From Promethearchaeota archaeon (lineage in GTDB: Archaea > Asgardarchaeota > Lokiarchaeia > Sigyniarchaeales > SOKP01), in contig JAEOTP010000043.1 of the NCBI GenBank assembly GCA_016839765.1, positions 1 to 64,000 of the forward strand: a DNA stretch of 64,000 nucleotides, in the 5' to 3' direction. The notes under the pieces were generated by a model that saw nothing but the letters and a program-made list of their open reading frames with translations, searched no databases and was not told the DNA's origin. Below are positions 32,803 through 47,227 of this stretch, piece by piece (the stretch's first letter is position 1; the number at the start of each line of letters is the position of its first letter). The position numbers and the translations under genes are program-made.

Positions 32803-33858
32803 ATGATTGATAAAATAGTTGTGTTTGGAGGCAAAGGCGGTGTTGGAAAAAGCTCAATTAGTGCTGCAACAGCCGTAAAGCTTTCGGAATTAGTTCCCAC
32901 TAAAAAAATTCTATTAATTTCATTTGATATTGCACATAATTTAACTGACATTTTTGGAATCACTATAAACAGTAAAATAACTCCTATTACGGATAACTTA
33001 TGGGCAATTGAACCTGATCCAAATCTTTATGCTGAAAAATATACAAAAGATTTAGTGGAAAAAATGAAAACTCTTATAAAACAAATGCCTATCATTGGAA
33101 ATTTACCTCAAATCGAGAAGTTTATTAATACGACATTCACAGCAGATTCTATCCCATTGGCTTTAAAAAATGCGATGTTTTTCCAAAAATTACTAGATGC
33201 AGAAGATCTTGATACTCAAGAAATTCAATTTGATATCATCGTAGCAGATTTTCCTCCCACAGGAAATATGGTGGCTCTTTTCGAAATTCCCGAAGATCAA
33301 GTTAAAGTTGTTTTGAAATATTCTTTAAATTTTTATAATTCAATTAGAGGGGCAATTAGAAATTTCTCTAAAATGTTTAGACAGCTAATTAAACCTTTTG
33401 ATGATGGAAGCTATGAAAAAAGAAGAGAATTAGGAAATGAAATTTTTAACATGGTAGTAGAACTTGAAAAACGTGGAGAAAGAATAAGCGAATTAATTCA
33501 TAGTGTAGGATCCTTACGATTGGTCACTATCGCTGAAAGACCTAGTTTTGAAGAAATAAAAAGAGCACGAGATTTAACTAAAAGATATATTTCCCTTCAT
33601 GCTGTTCATATAAACATGTTAACTCCCGAAGTAAAAAAATGCGAATACTGTAAAAAGATGAGATCTAACCAATTAAAATTTACATCAGAAATTAAAAACG
33701 AGTTTAAAAAATTAAGAATTTGGGAATCAGATCGCCTTATTGATGAACCAATTGGATTAGACGGGATAAAAAAACTCGCCACGGAAGTGTATGGAAATGT
33801 TACTGCAAATGAAATTTTGAATCCTCTAGTTAAGATGAAAAAAATGAATAAAATTTAG
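32803..33858 (+). CDS. ArsA/Get3 (TRC40)-family ATPase
   Basis: GGKGGVGKSS P-loop, SFDIAHNL, DFPPTG and C-terminal CEYC motifs. Confidence 0.88.
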   Translation: MIDKIVVFGGKGGVGKSSISAATAVKLSELVPTKKILLISFDIAHNLTDIFGITINSKITPITDNLWAIEPDPNLYAEKYTKDLVEKMKTLIKQMPIIGNLPQIEKFINTTFTADSIPLALKNAMFFQKLLDAEDLDTQEIQFDIIVADFPPTGNMVALFEIPEDQVKVVLKYSLNFYNSIRGAIRNFSKMFRQLIKPFDDGSYEKRRELGNEIFNMVVELEKRGERISELIHSVGSLRLVTIAERPSFEEIKRARDLTKRYISLHAVHINMLTPEVKKCEYCKKMRSNQLKFTSEIKNEFKKLRIWESDRLIDEPIGLDGIKKLATEVYGNVTANEILNPLVKMKKMNKI

Positions 33859-35123
33859 GTCCCTTCAAGGTATCCATGGATATAATTGTATTGTTCCCCA
33901 GTCAGTTCATCAATTTCAATGCCCATTGATTGTAATTTTAAATATCCTACTTTATTATCTATTTCTGTTGGAATCTCGATTATACCAGGTTTGAAGGACC
34001 CTTTATTTTTAACAATATACTCAGATATTAATGATTGTAAAGCAAAAGACATGTCCATTACTTCACTTGGATGACCTTCAGATAATACTAAATTAGCTAA
34101 TCTTCCTTTAGCAAGTAAATAAATCTTTTTACCACCTGGCAGAGTCAATTCTTCTACATGTTTTCGTATTGGTTTTACTTCTTTAGCATAGTCATATAAT
34201 TGTTTAGTTGGAATTTCAATATCAAAATGACCTAAATTCCCAAGAATGACACCATCCTTGAATGTGTCAAATATTTCAGGTTTAGGTGGAATAACATGCT
34301 TACATCCTGTAGCTGTTAGAATTACATCTGCCTCTGGAAGAGTTTTAAGAATAGGTTTTACATCAAATCCTGCAAATTTGGCTTGTAAGGCTTTTATTGG
34401 ATCCACCTCTGTTACAGTCACATTTGCACCTAAACCTTTTGCTCGTAATGCCATCCCTGAAGAACAATGACCATATCCTGCAATAACAACATCCTTTCCA
34501 GCAAATAGTATATGCATTCCATATATTGCTGAAATGACCCCTTGTCCTGTGCCTAGCTCATTATCAAATTGATTTTTGCATCGCGCATCATTGACTGGAA
34601 ATAATGGTACTTTTAATACACCCTGTTTATCCATAGCTCTGAAGCGTTTTACTCCGGTTGTAGTTTCCTCTTGACATCCAATTATAATACCTTCTTCAAT
34701 TAATTCAGGAAATTCTTTATGTGCCGTTACAATCATATCTGCTCCATCATCTATCAAAATATTTGGTTTTGCTTTCAAGCATTGTCGTATACACCAGTAA
34801 AACTCTTCATCAGTATTTCCATGCCAAGCAAATACATTAACTCCCTCTTCAACTAAAGCTGCAGCTACATCGTCTTGGGTTGATAATGGATTGCTGCCAC
34901 ATAAATAAACCTCTGCTCCTCCTGCTTTAAGTGTACGTGCGAGATTTCCAGTTTCTTTAGTAATGTGTAGGCATCCCGCGATGACCACACCCTTCAATGG
35001 TTTTTCTTTTGTAAATCTTTCACGAATAATTTTAACCGTTACTGGCATTTTTCTTTCTGCGATATATAATGCTTCTTTTCCCTTTTCAGCTAATGATTCA
35101 TCAGCAACTTTATAATTTACCAT
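33855..35123 (-). CDS. ahcY: Adenosylhomocysteinase
   Basis: GCLHITKET, SNPLSTQDD, EETTTG and GHPSEVMDMSF motifs. Confidence 0.97.
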   Translation of the reverse strand: MVNYKVADESLAEKGKEALYIAERKMPVTVKIIRERFTKEKPLKGVVIAGCLHITKETGNLARTLKAGGAEVYLCGSNPLSTQDDVAAALVEEGVNVFAWHGNTDEEFYWCIRQCLKAKPNILIDDGADMIVTAHKEFPELIEEGIIIGCQEETTTGVKRFRAMDKQGVLKVPLFPVNDARCKNQFDNELGTGQGVISAIYGMHILFAGKDVVIAGYGHCSSGMALRAKGLGANVTVTEVDPIKALQAKFAGFDVKPILKTLPEADVILTATGCKHVIPPKPEIFDTFKDGVILGNLGHFDIEIPTKQLYDYAKEVKPIRKHVEELTLPGGKKIYLLAKGRLANLVLSEGHPSEVMDMSFALQSLISEYIVKNKGSFKPGIIEIPTEIDNKVGYLKLQSMGIEIDELTGEQYNYIHGYLEGT

Positions 35124-35243
35124 TTAAAGTTCACTTTCAAAGTTTTACTTTTAATAATTTTAATTAACTAATAAAGATATTTTTGGTTAAATGCAAATAT
35201 TTATATATTTAATTTGACAATTAATTAATAATATACAAGAAAA

Positions 35244-36494
35244 ATGCAAAATTGTAATATTATGAGTAGTAGTAAAGATCGAGTGGAAGCCCAACACTTT
35301 ATAAAGAATTTAAGTGGAAAAACCAAATTTGTTATATCAAAAAATTCACGTGCGATAGGACTCTCTAGACAAACATATCAAAACAAACTTGATAATTTGA
35401 GATACCAAAAAATAATTACCAATTTTACAATTAATATTAATCCAAATATTCGCCCAAATAATTTGAAATATGTAATGATTGAAATAAAAACTAACCCTAA
35501 AGAACCTGAATTAGTCGAAGAACTCTTAAAAATTCCGCAATTAAGAATGTTAGATGGAATATTTGGAGATTTTTCTCTGTTTGCATTATTTATTTTTAAA
35601 TCTCCCGAGGAATATTATCAGATATTGAATAACATTGATAAAACTATGTCAAAATCATATTTTAAGAAATATCAGATAATCGAAACTATTAAGGTGTTTA
35701 AAACAAATGGAATTAGCTTGAGAGACTCAAAAATCTCATTTACTCTTGGAAAAAAAATCAATTTAAAAGAAATTGCTAAAAATTCTGCGAATATCGAATA
35801 TAACCCACAGAAATTTCCGGGCGTTGTTATGAAGATAGAAGATCCAAATGCTACAATTTTGATTTTCTCAACTGGTAAAATAGTAGTAACTGAATTTAGA
35901 AAAGAAATAGGAGCTAAACAATTAATAGATAAAGTTGCCCAAGAGATAAGAAAAACAGGAATTCAACTAGAGAAGAAGATTAGTCAAAATTTTTATATTG
36001 ATGAGATAGATTACCTTATTTTAAAAATATTACAAGATGACCAAGGATTAAGACCAATTTCTACATATGAAATCAAAGATTTGCTAAATGAAAAGTATAG
36101 AATGACTTTAAAGTCTCTGAACAAAGACGATATTTCACAATCAACTATTCATAACAGAATTAAAAAACTCGAACAACAAGGTGCTATCTTAAATTATACA
36201 GTGAATTTTTGTCCAAAAAAAATAGGCTTTAAAGGCAAATATCTCCTTCGTATTAAACCAAAAGATCCATCAAAATATAATGAACTTGCTCTTAAACTGG
36301 ATATGCACAAAAATATTACTGATTTATTTCGAATAGGCGAACAATATGGATTATTTGCGATTGTTAGAGTGGAAAAAATTGAAGATTTTGCCTCTTTTAT
36401 CAAGGATCTATATAGTTCAGAAGAAATTGAAGATACATACACAAGCTTTGTTTTAGATGAGTTGAAACCTTATACTAATTTTATCCTTTTTTGA
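35244..36494 (+). CDS. Tandem Lrp/AsnC-family regulator with an inserted single TBP repeat
   Basis: Two HTH+RAM units (GLSRQT..; IDEIDYLILKILQ..ISQSTIHNRIKKLEQQGAI) flank EYNPQKFPGVVMKIEDPNATILIFSTGKIVVT. Confidence 0.85.
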   Translation: MQNCNIMSSSKDRVEAQHFIKNLSGKTKFVISKNSRAIGLSRQTYQNKLDNLRYQKIITNFTININPNIRPNNLKYVMIEIKTNPKEPELVEELLKIPQLRMLDGIFGDFSLFALFIFKSPEEYYQILNNIDKTMSKSYFKKYQIIETIKVFKTNGISLRDSKISFTLGKKINLKEIAKNSANIEYNPQKFPGVVMKIEDPNATILIFSTGKIVVTEFRKEIGAKQLIDKVAQEIRKTGIQLEKKISQNFYIDEIDYLILKILQDDQGLRPISTYEIKDLLNEKYRMTLKSLNKDDISQSTIHNRIKKLEQQGAILNYTVNFCPKKIGFKGKYLLRIKPKDPSKYNELALKLDMHKNITDLFRIGEQYGLFAIVRVEKIEDFASFIKDLYSSEEIEDTYTSFVLDELKPYTNFILF

Positions 36495-36582: not shown

Positions 36583-38673
36583 TTGTATATTATGAATTAT
36601 TTTTATGAAATCTTAAATAAACGGATAGGTTATTCTAGAGTCGGGAGAATCAAATTATCGAAGGAACCTAAGAAATATGTAAAGACTCCTAACGTTATTC
36701 TCCCTATGCGAAATTTTCTATTGAAAAATGTTAACTTCTTAGAAGAGTTTGAAGACCATGAAATTTTTTTAATATCAAAAGAAGTTTTCCTAAAAATAGG
36801 TTTTTTGCGCGATAAGTTTAGAAATACAGCTTTTATTTTCACCCATACAGGTACACTACAAACATTTATAGAAATTTTAGAGAATAATATTGACATCTTC
36901 TCGGAAGATAATATTATTCTTCTAATCCCTTTCAATATCCCAACGACAATTCTTGATGAAAATTTTGCTAAAAATGAAATCTTATATCATCTTAATTCAG
37001 TAAAAAAACTCTTAGAAAATTTTCCAAATCTTAATTTTGGGTTAAGTATTAAAATATTTGAACATCCACAATTCCTTGATCTATATAGTCCATTAATAAA
37101 AGAAAATAAAAATATTAAAATATTAAATTTAATTGACTTTTTCACTGCTAATACTAATTTTAGAAATGTCTTGGATTTAATTATTAGCATTAAACAAAAC
37201 TTTGATAATAATTTAGTTTTAATGGCTTCAGGACGGATTATCCCAAAGTATTTTCCAATTTTAATTTACTTAGGTATCGATCTTATTGATAGCTCATATT
37301 TACTTTATTTAACTTCAGAGAATTTCTATGATACAATAGAATTTTTACTTCCAATTTATAAAGTAAAGTATTTTCCTTGTTCATGTGTAGCTTGTCAAAC
37401 AAAATTAAAGAACTTCCAAAGTATGAAATATTCAGATGAAATATTTGAATATTTGTGTCTACATAATCTAATAACAGCAAAAACTTATATGAATAAAATA
37501 AAACAATATTTAAGGACAGAGGATTTCCGAGCATTTGTAGAAAAGACCTCATTTGATGATGTTCTAATCGTTTCAATATTAAAAGTATTAGATAGACAAT
37601 ATTTTGATTTAATAAAGTATGAGACTCCGATAACAGATTCTTTCTCGACAGTTAAATGCTTTGGTCCATCTTCTTACTATAGGCCAGACTTTCATCAATT
37701 TAGGGAGAGGTTAATAAAATATTTTTTACCTGAACCGTGGACAAAATTGATTATAATTTTTCCTTGCTCTGCAAGAAAGCCATATTCAGCATCAAAATCT
37801 CATAAGAAATTTCACAGTGTTTTAAGGAAATTTCCGGATTTCCCGGATTTTCAAGAAATTATTCTTACTTCCCCTCTTGGAGCTATACCACGACAGTTAG
37901 AAAATGTCTATCCTGTAAATTCATATGATATATCTGTAACTGGATTTTGGGATAATGAGGAGATTGATTTAGCTTCTCAAATGTTGGTTGAACTACTTAA
38001 GAAGTATAATACAAAAATCCCTATTATATGTCATGTAAGTGATAAAGGATACAAGGAAATTGTTTTAAGAGCACAAAAACAACTGTCTAACCAATTTTAT
38101 TTTACAGAGGTCTACAAAAATCTTACAACTTCTGATTCATTGAAGTCGCTGGAGAACATCGTAAATAATTTAAAAGATATTTTTATTTTAAAGGAAAATA
38201 TACCAAAGTCGAAGTATTATTCAAAATCGTGGGTTCGAAAATTAGTTAAAATTGCTGATTATCAGTTTGGTTCTAATATTGGTATGAAAATCTTTTCAAA
38301 AGGAATAAGAGTCAAGAAAAATAATGTGAGTAAAAATTTAGATATTATTGATATTGAAAACAAAAAATTATTAGGAAAATTTTTGGTTAAGACGGGTCAA
38401 ATTGAATTAACATTAATTGGAGCAGAAATTTTATCAGCCATTGACAAAGAATTTAATATTTTGGTCTTTGATGGAGATTTAATAAAGGGAAATACTCTTT
38501 TTAGACCAGGAATTGTTGAATTTAGTCAGAATCTTATCCCAAATAATTATGTTATTATTTTGGATAAAAGTAAAAAAAGTGTGATTGGACTTGCCAAATT
38601 AATTGTTGGTTCAAATTATATAAAAAACTCAAGTAATGGAAGGATTGCTAAAGTTTATGAAAAAATCAGTTAA
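36583..38673 (+). CDS. arcS: Archaeosine synthase subunit alpha (TgtA2/ArcS) with a PUA domain
   Basis: TGT-like N-terminus, CSCVAC..HN zinc site, PCSARKPYSASKSH, TSPLGAIPRQLE and C-terminal PUA. Confidence 0.88.
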   Translation: MYIMNYFYEILNKRIGYSRVGRIKLSKEPKKYVKTPNVILPMRNFLLKNVNFLEEFEDHEIFLISKEVFLKIGFLRDKFRNTAFIFTHTGTLQTFIEILENNIDIFSEDNIILLIPFNIPTTILDENFAKNEILYHLNSVKKLLENFPNLNFGLSIKIFEHPQFLDLYSPLIKENKNIKILNLIDFFTANTNFRNVLDLIISIKQNFDNNLVLMASGRIIPKYFPILIYLGIDLIDSSYLLYLTSENFYDTIEFLLPIYKVKYFPCSCVACQTKLKNFQSMKYSDEIFEYLCLHNLITAKTYMNKIKQYLRTEDFRAFVEKTSFDDVLIVSILKVLDRQYFDLIKYETPITDSFSTVKCFGPSSYYRPDFHQFRERLIKYFLPEPWTKLIIIFPCSARKPYSASKSHKKFHSVLRKFPDFPDFQEIILTSPLGAIPRQLENVYPVNSYDISVTGFWDNEEIDLASQMLVELLKKYNTKIPIICHVSDKGYKEIVLRAQKQLSNQFYFTEVYKNLTTSDSLKSLENIVNNLKDIFILKENIPKSKYYSKSWVRKLVKIADYQFGSNIGMKIFSKGIRVKKNNVSKNLDIIDIENKKLLGKFLVKTGQIELTLIGAEILSAIDKEFNILVFDGDLIKGNTLFRPGIVEFSQNLIPNNYVIILDKSKKSVIGLAKLIVGSNYIKNSSNGRIAKVYEKIS

Positions 38674-39754
38674 GTCTAGTTCAATTGTCGAAAATATTAA
38701 AGAAATTAGAGACAAAACAATTTTAAAGAGGAAAAATTTTACAAGCGATCAATTAAATAAACCAGTTAGTTTTTGGATAAAGGATGATCGCCTTTTAAAT
38801 GAAAAAGGAAAGGAATTTACTATTATCTTAAGAACTAAAGGGTGCAGCTGGGCATTAAGCGATAGTGGGGGATGTTCAATGTGTGGATATATAAATGATT
38901 CCAGTATTGAAAGTATAGACGATAAACATATTATCAATCAAGTAAATCATGCTTTTCAATCAAAATTGGAAGAAATTAGAATTGAAAGAAAGAATTTTAT
39001 ATTTAAGATTTTTAATTCTGGGAGTTTTTTCGATGAGAGTGAAATCTCTGAAGAAGTAAGGAACCATATTTATCAGAAAGTATATGAGAGTGATAGGATA
39101 CAAGAATTTGTTATTGAATCTCGCTTAGAATATATTTCAAAAATGAAATTAATAGATTTAAAAAACCAACTAAATGATAAATATATTGAATTAGCGATTG
39201 GCCTTGAAACGGTTAATGATTATATTAGAAACACTTATATAAATAAATCAATGTCTTATGATGATTTTATAAAAGTTTTTCGCATTTGCAAAGAAATTGG
39301 AATCGGAGTGAGGGTATATTTACTATTTAAACCCCCCTTTTTAAATGAACAAGGTGCTATAGACGATTGCGTCAGATCTATTATAAATCTAATTAATTTA
39401 GGAGTAGAAACGGTATCAATAAATCCTATAAATATTCAAAAAGGTACATTATTAGAATATTTATGGTATCAAAATCGTTATAGACCTCCATGGTTTTATT
39501 CTCTTTTTAAAAGTTTACGCAAAATCCATGAATTAAAAAAAGATTCAACATTTCCTCGTCTAATTTCAGATCCATCTGGAGCTGGAACGAAACGAGGGAT
39601 TCACAATTGCCTAAAAAGAGAATGTAATCAAAAAATGATAAGCATTCTTCGAAATTTTGTATTATCACAAGATTTTAACTATTTAAATAAAAAAGATGCA
39701 TATTATGATTGTGATTGTTTGACAAGATACCGTCTTCAAAAGAATTTCCATTAA
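38636..39754 (+). CDS. raSEA: Archaeosine biosynthesis radical SAM protein RaSEA
   Basis: ILRTKGCSW..GGCSMCGY, FNSGSFFD, IGLET and YRPPW motifs; overlaps arcS. Confidence 0.9.
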   Translation: MEGLLKFMKKSVKSSSIVENIKEIRDKTILKRKNFTSDQLNKPVSFWIKDDRLLNEKGKEFTIILRTKGCSWALSDSGGCSMCGYINDSSIESIDDKHIINQVNHAFQSKLEEIRIERKNFIFKIFNSGSFFDESEISEEVRNHIYQKVYESDRIQEFVIESRLEYISKMKLIDLKNQLNDKYIELAIGLETVNDYIRNTYINKSMSYDDFIKVFRICKEIGIGVRVYLLFKPPFLNEQGAIDDCVRSIINLINLGVETVSINPINIQKGTLLEYLWYQNRYRPPWFYSLFKSLRKIHELKKDSTFPRLISDPSGAGTKRGIHNCLKRECNQKMISILRNFVLSQDFNYLNKKDAYYDCDCLTRYRLQKNFH

Positions 39755-40235: not shown

Positions 40236-40283
40236 CAAACTTATAGAATTTTTAGCAATTCACAATTTTAAAAGGTGTAAAGT

Positions 40284-41243
40284 ATTTCGAGTTGGAATTA
40301 TATAGAAGTTCTACCAAAAAAAGAAATTTCTATTGAAGATGATAATTGTACCGAATGTGGTAAAAAAATCATAAAAAATTCTGATTCACTTTTGGTTTGT
40401 GAAGAGTGTGGCTTAGTCCATTCGGGAAATCATATTGATCGTGGTCCTGAATGGAGAGCATTTGATGCTGATCAGAAGAAAAAGAGAACTCGAACTGGAG
40501 CGCCAATGACTTATATGATTCATGATAAAGGTTTAAGCACAATGATTGATTGGAAAAACAGAGACATTTTTGGCAAGGAAATTCCCGCAAAATCAAGGGG
40601 ACAAATCTATAGATTACGCAAATGGCAAAGTAGAATAAGGGTATCCGATGCAACAGAGAGAAATCTGACTTTTGCACTAAGTGAATTAGATCGCATGGCT
40701 TCAAATTTAGATCTCCCTAAAAATCTTCGTGAGTGTTCCGCAAAAATATATAGGGATGCGGTCGATGCTCACCTCATAAGAGGACGAAGTATTGAGGGTG
40801 TAGCTGCAGCAAGTTTATATGCCGCTTGCAGAATGTATAAAATACCTAGAACATTGAATGAAATTGCCGAAGTTGCTCGGGTGGATAAAAAGGAGATAGG
40901 AAGATCTTTCCGTTTTATATCCAATGAATTGGTCCTTAATTTGAATCCAACTAAACCCCTCGATTTCCTTACCAGATTTATTTCTGAGCTAGAACTAACA
41001 CATGATTGTCAAAAAGCAGCTAAAATAATTATTAAAATAGCAGAAACTCGTGGGTTGACGTCAGGAAGAGGACCGACAGGAGTTTGTGCAGCAGCCATTT
41101 ATGCTGCAAGTATTTTGACCAAAGAAAGAAGGACACAAAGAAAAATTGCTAAGATTAGTCAGGTAACTGAAGTTACTGTCCGTAATCGATTCACAGAGCT
41201 TATAGAGAATTTAGATTTGGGCATCTCATTAAAAAAGAAATAA
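40284..41243 (+). CDS. tfb: Transcription initiation factor IIB (TFB)
   Basis: Zinc ribbon CTECG...CEECG, whose first CxxC lies upstream of the ORF-track start at 40392. Also GPEWRAF, HDKGLST and two cyclin repeats. Start uncertain; ATT at 40284 proposed. Confidence 0.93.
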
Positions 41244-43417: not shown

Positions 43418-46400
43418 TTATTGATAAATTGTTTCAACCCAATTTTCTAACTCTAAATATAATTTTTTTAACTTATTGATCTGTTCTTCTGTTGCATCCC
43501 AGTAATTTCTATTTTCTGCTTGTAACATATTTCTAATTATATCCATCATTGCAAATCTATTATTTTCAATAAGTGCCTCTCGAATTTCCTCATTTTCTAC
43601 ATATTGTTGATAGCTTTTATCCCAAATCCAATTATCTACAGCATGAGCTGTTGCTGCGAGTCCTAAAACATTCTCAACACGTTCAGCGACTTTTTGACCA
43701 CCATGATATTTATGCTTCAGCAAGGATTTTATCCATTGAGGATTCAAGTTACGCGTAATTGCTCCTTCTTTTATACTTTTTTCCAGACGATCTACTTGAA
43801 TTTTTTTTCTTGAGGTGTCAGCAATATATACATTTGCTTTTTCACCACTAAGGTGTTCATGAGTTCTGGCTAAACCTCCTGTAAATTCATAATAATGGTC
43901 TAAATCTGTAATATGATATTCGCTTGAGTCTCTAATCTGACTCATTAAATTGATTTTACTTACTGTTTGAGAAAATGTTTTTGGGCTCTTTTTAACATTT
44001 TGATTTTTCATGTATGCAAAACTCATATTATTAATATAATCATCAACGAGTTCTTGTTCTTCTTTCCATTTTCCAGCAGAGATTATATTAGTAAGATTAG
44101 TATTGTATTTTCCTGGAGGAGGACCAAACACCCTTGCATTGGGAACCTCAACTTCCTGATTTTTAAGTTCTATATACGTTTTTTTAACAAAATTCTTGTC
44201 TAGAGGCTCATCTAATTCTGCTACAGTCTCAATTACGTGATTAATCAACTCTAATAAAAAAGGAAAAGTATCTCTAAATATTCCGCAAATTGTAATAAGA
44301 ACATTAATTCTTGGATGAGTCATTTCTTCTAAAGGAATTACTTCAAATTCAGTAGTCCAAATAGATTTATTTTTTATTGCTCTTACACCTAAATAATTAA
44401 AAATTTGACCTATTGTTTCGCCACCAGTTTTCATAGTCTCAAATGCCCATAAAACCACGCTAACTGTTTCAGGATATTTATTATTTTCATTATAATATTT
44501 TTTTAATAGTCTCTCTGCGATTATTGATCCTCTTTTATAAGCAGTGGTATTAGGGATTAATCTGGGATCAAAACCATAAGAATTTCTACCTGTTGGGAAG
44601 ATATGAGGTGAACGGATGGTATCTCCACCCAATCCTGGTTCAATATACCCTCCTTCTAACGCATGGACCAAATTTTCCATTTCCATAGAGTTATCCATTC
44701 TGTATATAAGATCAATGATCCAATTCACGAAAAATTTCTTTTCTTGATCGGTAATTTGAAAACTTAATACAAGAGAACTTGATATTCTATCTATATTAAA
44801 ATTATTTATGTTCGCGGAGGCGTTAATTTGATTTAATATTTGGTTAATAATACCATTAAGTTCATCTGACGCATTTTTTTTTTCTTTGAATAATTTTGAT
44901 ATAAATGTGTCGATTTCCTCTGGTTTTTCTACAGAATTTAATAGTATCATATTAATAATATCTTTTTTCTCCTGATCATTGTATTTTTTACCCAATATGT
45001 GTAAACCCATAGGAATTATCGATGTTTTATACCGATATAATATATCCTCTAATTCGGAAACACTATTATACTCTAATTCTAACTTTTCTGCTAAGTCTTT
45101 TATTTCTTTTTCTAAATCTTCAATTCTTTCGGATTTTACATGATCAGAAGAATTTTTAAGATTAAAATCGAATTCAGATTGGTATTCCTTTATCAATGTT
45201 TCTAAATTTTCTAATTCTTCATATAAATCAGAATTTTTGAATGATGGACCAGCATGATTAATAATTAATGCATTTCCCCTCCTTTTAGCAATTGCAGATT
45301 CACTGGTATTAGTAATATGATAATAATAGAGATTTGGAATATCCCCTAATAAATTCATAGGGTAATCCCATAAACCACCAGCACATTCCTTACCTGGTAA
45401 AAATTCTTCAGTTCCATGTGTTCCAATGTTTATAACAGCATCTACATCTAGTATTTTTTCAAGATATCTATAAAAGGCTATATATTGATGATGTGGTGGC
45501 AAATTTTTATCATGATATTCATTCGGATCTCCAGTAACAGTACTTCGGGATGGTTGTAAGCATAAATACAAATTATTTAACTTTATAATTGGTAGTTTTA
45601 TGTTTGAATTTTCGGTCATGATTTTACCAATGGGAGTACCCCAGAATTTATACGTATCATGCTTTAATTGCTCTGGCAAATCGGAAATTAAATTTAAATA
45701 GTTCTCTTTATCTAAGATAATTCCATTGAAGTTTGGAGCCTTAATGTGTTTTACTTTATTTACTGAGCCTCCTTCAATAAAAATATCAGCAAGGTTTTTA
45801 TCCTCAGGGATATTTTTTACATTATATCCTTCATTAGCGAATTGATTAATTAGATTGCGAACTGATTCAGATACATCTAAATAGGCTGCGTTTCCAATCT
45901 TATCTTCGCCAGGAGGATAATTATAAATAATTAGAGCAATAATTTTTTCTGAATTTAATTTAATTCTTAATTTTAACCACTTTCTAATTCTATTACATAC
46001 TAAAGATATATTTTCAGTTATAGGAGCAACTTCTAGTACATCTGAATGAATTTTTTCAGAATATCCCAGGTTTTTGATACATCCAACAGTGATCATCTCA
46101 AATCTACCATCAAGTTCAGGCATTACAATAGCAATAATTTGATTGATGGGGATAATTCCTTCTTTGGATTCTACATATTTTTCTAAAGGCATATCAAATT
46201 GAATAATTGGATTGAAATGAGGAACATCCATTTTTTTAAAAAGATCTAATGTAACAGAACCGTCTCCGCCAAAAGGACCTCCATTTAGTTGAAAATATTG
46301 AAGATTTATTACACCACTTACAATGCTTTTATTATTTTGCAAGAAAAACTTTTGATAGGCTTCCAAATTCGTTAATACATCTGAAAATACAGGAATAACA

Positions 46401-47227
46401 TTAAAATCTGTTAAATTCTTAATAAACTCTTCTACTATAGGGAGTGATTGCTCAAAATACAATCCGCCATAAAAAAATAAGCCAAGTGTTTGTTTTTGTA
46501 AATTAATAGGTTTAACTTTAAAATAATCTTCTAAATTACCAAAGTATCGATTCAAATTGATATCATAAATTCCAAATGAAGGAATTTTGAGAGGCTTTTG
46601 GACTTTTAGGTCTTTATACCCCATGTAATGTTTTAGTAAAAAAAGTATCATATTTTTATGATTTTCGGCCAAACCACCAAGACCGTAAACCCAATAATCC
46701 ATCATTAAACCCCAATATCTAGCATGTCTCAATACTTTAATAGGAAAAATTTTACCCATCGTTTTCATTAAATTAGTCATTTTTTGCCCGAATCTTACAC
46801 CATTAGTTATATCAGGGATTTCATCTATTCCGTATTCTGTTTGTTGAGGTGAAGGGATTCTTCGTGCAAAGAATGGGCCCATTTTGGTTAACCTCCTGAT
46901 TTCACTATTTCCTCCTACTAAAGCTATGATGGTTTTTGAGTTAAACAATTTAGGATTTTCATTTTCCATTTTTTTATAAGTATCCACTAATAGCTCAACT
47001 GTTGGACAATTCCCTCTAATATCAATCAGCATAATTCGTGATTCGTAAATTTCTTTTATGAATTCATCTTTAGTTGTTTTACCAGAATCAACATCATTTA
47101 AAAAATATACTTTAAAATCAAATTGCTTTCCAATTTCTCTATAAATCTGAGAAATACACTCTGTTAACCATTTTGTAAATACACTAGCTGAAATTAGTGT
47201 AATTTTAGGAATTTTTTTACTAATCAT
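43418..47227 (-). CDS. cobN: CobN/ChlH-family chelatase large subunit
   Basis: YNYPPG, LQPSR, PPHHQY, GTHGTEEFLPGK, AKRRG, PTGRN and LNPQWI motifs. Confidence 0.9.
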   Translation of the reverse strand: MISKKIPKITLISASVFTKWLTECISQIYREIGKQFDFKVYFLNDVDSGKTTKDEFIKEIYESRIMLIDIRGNCPTVELLVDTYKKMENENPKLFNSKTIIALVGGNSEIRRLTKMGPFFARRIPSPQQTEYGIDEIPDITNGVRFGQKMTNLMKTMGKIFPIKVLRHARYWGLMMDYWVYGLGGLAENHKNMILFLLKHYMGYKDLKVQKPLKIPSFGIYDINLNRYFGNLEDYFKVKPINLQKQTLGLFFYGGLYFEQSLPIVEEFIKNLTDFNVIPVFSDVLTNLEAYQKFFLQNNKSIVSGVINLQYFQLNGGPFGGDGSVTLDLFKKMDVPHFNPIIQFDMPLEKYVESKEGIIPINQIIAIVMPELDGRFEMITVGCIKNLGYSEKIHSDVLEVAPITENISLVCNRIRKWLKLRIKLNSEKIIALIIYNYPPGEDKIGNAAYLDVSESVRNLINQFANEGYNVKNIPEDKNLADIFIEGGSVNKVKHIKAPNFNGIILDKENYLNLISDLPEQLKHDTYKFWGTPIGKIMTENSNIKLPIIKLNNLYLCLQPSRSTVTGDPNEYHDKNLPPHHQYIAFYRYLEKILDVDAVINIGTHGTEEFLPGKECAGGLWDYPMNLLGDIPNLYYYHITNTSESAIAKRRGNALIINHAGPSFKNSDLYEELENLETLIKEYQSEFDFNLKNSSDHVKSERIEDLEKEIKDLAEKLELEYNSVSELEDILYRYKTSIIPMGLHILGKKYNDQEKKDIINMILLNSVEKPEEIDTFISKLFKEKKNASDELNGIINQILNQINASANINNFNIDRISSSLVLSFQITDQEKKFFVNWIIDLIYRMDNSMEMENLVHALEGGYIEPGLGGDTIRSPHIFPTGRNSYGFDPRLIPNTTAYKRGSIIAERLLKKYYNENNKYPETVSVVLWAFETMKTGGETIGQIFNYLGVRAIKNKSIWTTEFEVIPLEEMTHPRINVLITICGIFRDTFPFLLELINHVIETVAELDEPLDKNFVKKTYIELKNQEVEVPNARVFGPPPGKYNTNLTNIISAGKWKEEQELVDDYINNMSFAYMKNQNVKKSPKTFSQTVSKINLMSQIRDSSEYHITDLDHYYEFTGGLARTHEHLSGEKANVYIADTSRKKIQVDRLEKSIKEGAITRNLNPQWIKSLLKHKYHGGQKVAERVENVLGLAATAHAVDNWIWDKSYQQYVENEEIREALIENNRFAMMDIIRNMLQAENRNYWDATEEQINKLKKLYLELENWVETIYQ

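Follow-up and report, generated by a model that had tools for sequence, protein, structure and literature searches.

TBP, the TATA-binding protein, is thought to have a single lobe as its origin, and it is an open question if a lobe on its own can usefully bind DNA (PMC3597702). Lone lobes have been described in halobacterial TbpA and the monopartite TBP-domain proteins of Thermococcales, which are stand-alone euryarchaeal proteins, and as accessory TBP-fold domains in RNase HIII and the AlkA/Ogg glycosylases, which are ancient, highly diverged and of unidentified donor; TbpA is close to the resident TBP and reported to be non-essential (PMC3597702). This survey of the TBP fold predates Asgard genomes. 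On the regulator side, Lrp/AsnC proteins such as FL11/PH1519 (2CYY, 2E1C), P. furiosus LrpA (1I1G) and M. jannaschii Ptr2 combine a helix-turn-helix (HTH) with a RAM domain and lie divergent from a metabolic gene. The Lrp dimer is the minimal DNA-binding unit, and Ptr2-type activators work via TBP, which they recruit as a separate, whole protein (PMC2995911).

The window analysed here, a 64,000-nucleotide stretch of an Asgard archaeal contig, carries a gene in which a Lrp unit, a TBP lobe and a further Lrp unit follow one another in one open reading frame (ORF; Table 1). Like archaeal TBPs (PF00352; 1MP9, 1AIS/1PCZ, 2Z8U), including the two-repeat TBP encoded elsewhere in the same genome (C67:155369-156040), the encoded protein has the lobe fold, the stirrup, the phenylalanine pair and basic DNA-face residues, but unlike them it has a single repeat without the strand-1 Asn/Val, a Glu in place of Gly125 and no TFB-binding glutamates, all within a regulator. 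It shares HTH and RAM domains and a divergent metabolic neighbour with Lrp/AsnC proteins, but differs from these in having two units per chain, a diverged first HTH and a TBP lobe in the linker, so that the lobe is fused in the chain where Ptr2 recruits TBP from outside. With TbpA-type proteins it shares a single lobe close to the resident TBP, and hence a similar origin, but unlike these proteins, which stand alone at fewer than 150 residues, the lobe lies in frame within a 416-aa ORF and inside a sequence-specific regulator. The accessory domains of RNase HIII and AlkA/Ogg are the closest working analogy, although the lobe described here is a recent capture with an identifiable donor, and AlkA itself resembles it with a Z score of 5.8 at 5% identity. 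The protein is a member of the Lrp/AsnC family and not a canonical TBP, having one repeat, no dyad motif and no TFB site, and its arrangement is a new domain architecture made of known parts. Neither a Lrp-TBP fusion nor a Lrp regulator of ahcY was found described in the literature searched, the coverage of which was incomplete.

Table 1 Features of the regulator gene and the ahcY locus in the window. Promoter patterns were drawn from the same loci that were scored, which makes the contrast with shuffled sequences generous.
Feature	Position	Strand	Evidence or remark
ahcY, S-adenosylhomocysteine hydrolase, inferred target	33855..35123	-	TIGR00936 above cut-off; sole copy in assembly
Candidate BRE and TATA box of ahcY	35168..35191	-	18/18 insert-bearing, 30/38 other loci; 0.3% in shuffles
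Candidate TATA box of lrp gene	35200..35207	+	24 bp from ahcY TATA box
Candidate operator, conserved AT-rich element downstream of lrp TATA box	35214..35228	+	17/18 insert-bearing, 24/38 other loci; 3-5% in shuffles
Lrp-TBP lobe-Lrp gene	35244..36494	+	416 aa
Candidate Lrp box, imperfect palindrome over first ATG	35245..35256	+	12/18 insert-bearing, 8/38 other loci; 7% in shuffles
Lrp unit 1 HTH, diverged, about residues 17-62	35292..35429	+	Aligns with unit 2; low pLDDT
Lrp unit 1 RAM ligand-binding/oligomerisation domain, about residues 73-150	35460..35693	+	PF01037, E 3.4e-4; predicted RAM topology
Inserted segment holding single TBP N-terminal lobe	35712..35957	+	Pfam match 35733-35954
F191, equivalent of yeast TBP F99	35814..35816	+	Invariant, 93/93 inserts
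F208, equivalent of yeast TBP F116	35865..35867	+	Retained in 83/93 inserts (89%)
E217 in place of Gly (yeast G125)	35892..35894	+	Gly invariant in resident TBPs, retained in 70% of inserts
Lrp unit 2 AsnC-type HTH, about residues 253-320	36000..36203	+	PF13412 (above cut-off), PF13404
Lrp unit 2 RAM domain, about residues 331-405	36234..36458	+	PF01037, E 1.8e-7

The insert is not an assembly chimera, which the sequence-only reading had named as a refutation. A contig from an independent study covers positions 35531-36079, and hence both insert junctions, with 13 differences and no gaps, another contig covers 35690-36800, and the three-part layout is common to about 100 homologues from separate assemblies (about 93 distinct), which together rule out mis-assembly. 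Where named, the insert-bearing homologues come from Promethearchaeota/Lokiarchaeia-type bins; they were sampled by likeness to the 416-aa protein, and their counts are not frequencies. Among sampled genomes, the architecture occurs in 10 of the 42 from the genus and in one from a sister genus.

The segment proposed from the sequence as a single TBP repeat between Lrp units, with both intercalating phenylalanines, spans residues 164-240 (exactly 35733-35963) and is confirmed by both sequence and fold. Pfam returns a single TBP match (PF00352, residues 165-237, E 1.3e-21, 76.6 bits, the cut-off being 22.9) and no second repeat in the 416-aa protein, and the best PDB sequence matches are archaeal TBPs (E 8e-27). 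Residues 158-252, folded alone from an 85-sequence alignment, gave a model with a mean pLDDT of 84.8 and the TBP order of elements, S1-H1-S2-S3-S4-S5-H2. All 44 Foldseek matches to this model at E < 0.001 were TBPs, and a structural aligner superposed it on yeast TBP 66-159 with Z 12.2 (rmsd 2.4 A, 94 residues), against Z 6.7 for the best non-TBP chain. F191 and F208 are both present in 83 of 93 homologues, the F116-equivalent aromatic being a general nucleic-acid contact of TBP lobes (PMC7221094). Other TBP hallmarks have gone. The strand-1 Asn/Val are replaced in the 416-aa copy, although the model still forms a strand at S1, and the dyad motif of this strand, invariant in 21 resident TBPs, is matched by only two of 93 inserts, out of register. 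The Gly of the conserved Thr-Gly motif has become Glu (E217), just beyond the stretch quoted in the sequence-only reading. At the positions of the TFB-binding glutamates the 416-aa copy has Asn and Gln, and the first Glu is found in 0/93 inserts; this glutamate pair is the signature of the C-lobe stirrup and specific to that lobe (PMC7221094).

The flanks had been read as complete HTH-RAM units, which holds for both RAM domains and the unit 2 HTH, whereas the unit 1 HTH is diverged and Pfam recognises only the RAM domain of that unit. Two stretches match PF01037 (E 1.3e-12), RAM motifs of the tandem Lrp are retained across the class, and after the archaeal TBPs the PDB sequence matches are Lrp proteins including PH1519 (E 1e-11). 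The unit 1 HTH has no Pfam match in the 416-aa copy, but distant orthologues show two clear AsnC-type HTHs, and conservation analysis shows its recognition helix to be kept across the clade. Many homologues use a start at the second Met, at 35262. The host protein predates the insert and occurs phylum-wide without it: a sample of 121 genomes from across the phylum contained tandem Lrp orthologues in 46, and the linker measures 12-16 residues in 14 outgroup orthologues from other families of the class compared with 96 in the 416-aa protein, the insert adding about 82 residues to the 14 aa that insert-less orthologues have as linker. Among the long ORFs of 24 genomes from other families, none carried a lone TBP repeat. 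In one Asgard family (L152, L154, L156, L158-L160) it is the ahcY beside the tandem Lrp that takes the form of two neighbouring ORFs, one of about 190 and one of 200-280 residues, which may represent a split gene, a frameshift or two subunits.

To locate the source of the insert, we compared it with the repeats of resident TBPs. Each of the 93 distinct inserts has a better score with the resident N-repeat than with the C-repeat (mean 200 versus 99), with a median identity to the N-repeat of 49% and 58% (core) for the 416-aa copy. In a tree of repeats, the inserts fall on the N-repeat side (support 98), although the 71 columns do not resolve their internal order. Three homologues (P0022, P0036, P0072) retain a piece of the resident TBP N-terminal tail, of the kind that TBPs in this lineage typically have, with a shortened strand 1 after it, and the GC3 of the insert is similar to that of the flanks and of TBP. 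Together, the scores, tail remnants and matching GC3 identify the cell's own TBP gene as the donor and its N-terminal repeat as the part that was copied. Repeated refreshment of the insert by gene conversion from the resident TBP, suggested by P0066, P0051 and P0055, was not adopted, given the unresolved 71-column tree; raised DNA or codon identity to TBP genes was found in no insert.

A tree inferred from the flanks only unites all full inserts in a single clade (support 99-100), which is nested inside the family and has insert-less proteins interspersed in it, and the AU test rejects grouping the insert-bearing copies to the exclusion of these insert-less proteins (p 8e-9). Insert presence and absence require 6-7 changes on this tree, a count that alone does not separate gain from loss. 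The direction is set by the linkers, since they retain lobe remnants: those of 22, 35 and 36 residues keep the start of the lobe, some join the first insert residues to the last, and in one case the deletion is bounded by a pair of short, A-rich direct repeats. The simplest reading is one gain and several losses. Surveyed orthologues thus show the insert absent across the phylum and lost several times inside one clade, and it is an optional, dispensable part that was repeatedly deleted. P0101, nested in a quick tree and basal in a careful one, is not counted as a proven secondary loss.

Pairwise dN/dS was about 0.1 for the flanks, 0.3 for the lobe and 0.01 for the N-repeat of the resident TBP. 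Values for the lobe were mostly 0.25-0.45 (range 0.14-0.75) and below 1 in 31/31 pairs, which are not independent of each other, and the insert is under purifying but relaxed selection. The mean site rate was 0.68 in the flanks and 1.91 in the lobe, which evolves at about three times the pace of the flanks and 30 times that of real TBP. Within the lobe, rates were 1.41 for the DNA face, 1.19 for buried and 2.72 for other exposed positions (face versus exposed, p 1.4e-4), with classes assigned from general knowledge of TBP structure. Strand positions generally evolve more slowly than loops and helices, so that the signal may be partly structural. Three residues are invariant in the inserts (F99, P100 and G119, yeast numbering), Lys/Arg occupies positions 98, 105 and 120 in 97, 81 and 95% of them and positions 103, 114 and 122 are hydrophobic in 93-99%. 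Several base-contact residues are drifting (T112 retained in 58%, T124 in 45%, G125 in 70%), and the convex helices are the fastest-changing part. This pattern of conservation indicates that the lobe retains its concave DNA face.

A second protein of the genus also carries a lone lobe. It has about 320 residues, ends in one TBP repeat and occurs in nine of 42 genus genomes (L034-L042; for example L034:3054-4013, + strand); eight of the nine proteins were aligned, the ninth being a shorter ORF. Its repeat lies on the N-repeat side in a clade of its own (support 96) and lacks the strand-1 Asn. By eye, the front part looks like an AbrB-like hairpin and a putative longin domain; Pfam gave nothing for it and an Atlas search no usable match. 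The source genome encodes a lobe-less paralogue with 47% identity (G000 C57:124238-124951). The N-lobe was thus captured twice independently, by a tandem Lrp and by a longin-like protein. No genome has both fusions, an observation weakened by kinship and incomplete assemblies. A region search for further fusion partners returned family members only, and no third partner was seen among ten checked of the top 150 representatives, a partial survey. The second fusion was likewise not found described in the literature searched, with the same incomplete coverage.

Several further observations concern the TBP and TFB genes of these genomes. Full TBP genes occur in tandem pairs within the genus (G004:C60, G008:C9 at L126, G002:C136 at L128), and another family of the same order (f2, G037-G055) has up to five TBP paralogues per genome, some strongly diverged. 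Among the representative proteins, P0122, P0184 and P0237 comprise two with four TBP repeats each (376 and 702 aa) and one in which a two-repeat TBP is fused to a TIR domain (354 aa), architectures that could be artefacts of assembly or gene calling. In the window, the TFB frame at 40273-41243 (+) opens after a conserved stop and has no ATG, GTG or TTG before the zinc ribbon; an ATT at 40284 lies six bases behind a GGTG motif, six relatives have an Ile codon at the same place, and this non-canonical ATT is likely to be the start. The region 43418-47227 (-) encodes a 1269-aa CobN/BchH-type chelatase large subunit that scores just below the BchH cut-off.

The regulator gene is divergent from ahcY, as read from the sequence, across a gap of 120 bp. 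Because the tandem Lrp takes this position in every locus examined, 30 from across the phylum and 14 from the outgroups, ahcY can reasonably be inferred to be its target. This tight link, alongside which the sequence-only reading suggested a role in the SAM/SAH cycle, predates the insert and is a property of the host regulator. The two candidate TATA boxes are 24 bp apart and therefore a protein bound there would be close to both. No promoter feature is exclusive to insert-bearing loci; two elements are enriched, which kinship explains equally well (18 versus 38 loci). Replacement of TBP by the insert at a TATA-less promoter is ruled out by the BRE/TATA pattern, which is present with or without the insert. 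Downstream of the regulator, on the same strand and genus-wide, lie an ArcS-like archaeosine synthase gene and the radical SAM gene RaSEA (36583-39754, +); as RaSEA uses SAM, it could be a second target.

We propose that the two HTH-RAM units in one chain would act as a single-chain version of the Lrp dimer, controlling, as predicted from gene order, the divergent ahcY and lrp promoters, with a SAM/SAH-cycle metabolite as the probable signal. In one lineage, the N-lobe of the cell's own TBP was copied in frame into the linker between the units. With the HTHs on the operator, the lobe would then grip, and may kink, the neighbouring AT-rich DNA, and this contact could raise affinity or cover half a TATA box. 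Such coverage would hinder transcription and not start it, because the lobe is without TFB-binding glutamates. The lobe would thus be an optional, tethered minor-groove contact at the ahcY/lrp promoters, repressive if it covers the TATA box, and we put the probability of this reading at roughly 0.45. That the lobe can reach DNA beside the HTHs is hypothetical, the full-length model (pTM 0.37) being too poor for domain geometry. Of the earlier suggestions, occlusion of TATA boxes by a half-TBP stays plausible, given the retained DNA-facing surface.

The lobe might instead be a tolerated passenger that entered a permissive linker by chance, is retained only as a harmless fold and is slowly being deleted, which we consider unlikely. 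Its repeated independent losses and remnants, its fast pace relative to the flanks and to real TBP, the lost strand-1 and Thr-Gly residues, and an ahcY link and promoter that are the same without it all fit such a history. Against this, about 93 distinct proteins keep the lobe while their flanks have diverged to about 65-80% identity, although deletion between short repeats removes it cleanly; on the concave face, conservation of the exposed hydrophobic and basic residues almost equals that of the core; and a second protein has likewise recruited this lobe. A stronger form of the tethered contact, in which a half-TBP on the Lrp or longin-like protein binds or pairs on TATA DNA and thereby gates real TBP, is about equally doubtful.

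TBP dimerises through its concave face, and in the lobe this face might instead serve as a protein contact, binding for instance the resident TBP or a factor that associates with TBP, by which the regulator would sequester or position TBP. The conserved hydrophobic face would suit this, Ptr2 and other archaeal Lrp activators work by way of TBP (PMC2995911), in eukaryotes the N-lobe is the regulatory interface of TBP (PMC7221094), and TBP-fold domains of adaptin and COPG bind proteins (PMC3597702). However, Lys/Arg are also retained at phosphate-contact positions, which fits DNA better, and the convex helices, where N-lobe partners bind, change fastest, leaving this explanation improbable. The proposal that lobes of two protomers pair as a symmetric TBP on a TATA box, perhaps starting transcription, draws on the two kept phenylalanines, the strand still predicted at S1, oligomerisation of Lrp proteins (PMC2995911) and the stand-alone single-lobe TBPs of halophiles (PMC3597702), with a homodimer prediction of the isolated lobe (score 0.01) that speaks neither for nor against pairing, but a saddle working like TBP has against it the N-repeat character of all 93 inserts, the lost dyad motif and TFB glutamates, the genome's own two-repeat TBP, the unchanged BRE/TATA of ahcY and the dispensability of the insert, and is very improbable.

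The tethered DNA contact, if correct, probably has a modest effect, because the lobe is dispensable. The lone lobes known so far are either old and diverged beyond recognition or little studied, while here the donor is known and the capture recent. Natural proteins with the lobe, without it and with remnants of it are matched at the same promoter, making the question of single-lobe function directly testable. The Lrp-TBP fusion is real, moderately surprising and readily testable, and if the gating reading were true, it would be a natural and recent case of a sequence-specific regulator with a TBP-derived TATA blocker or half-saddle. Two captures of the N-lobe within one Asgard family suggest that parts of basal transcription factors have been reused for gene-specific control in these relatives of eukaryotes.
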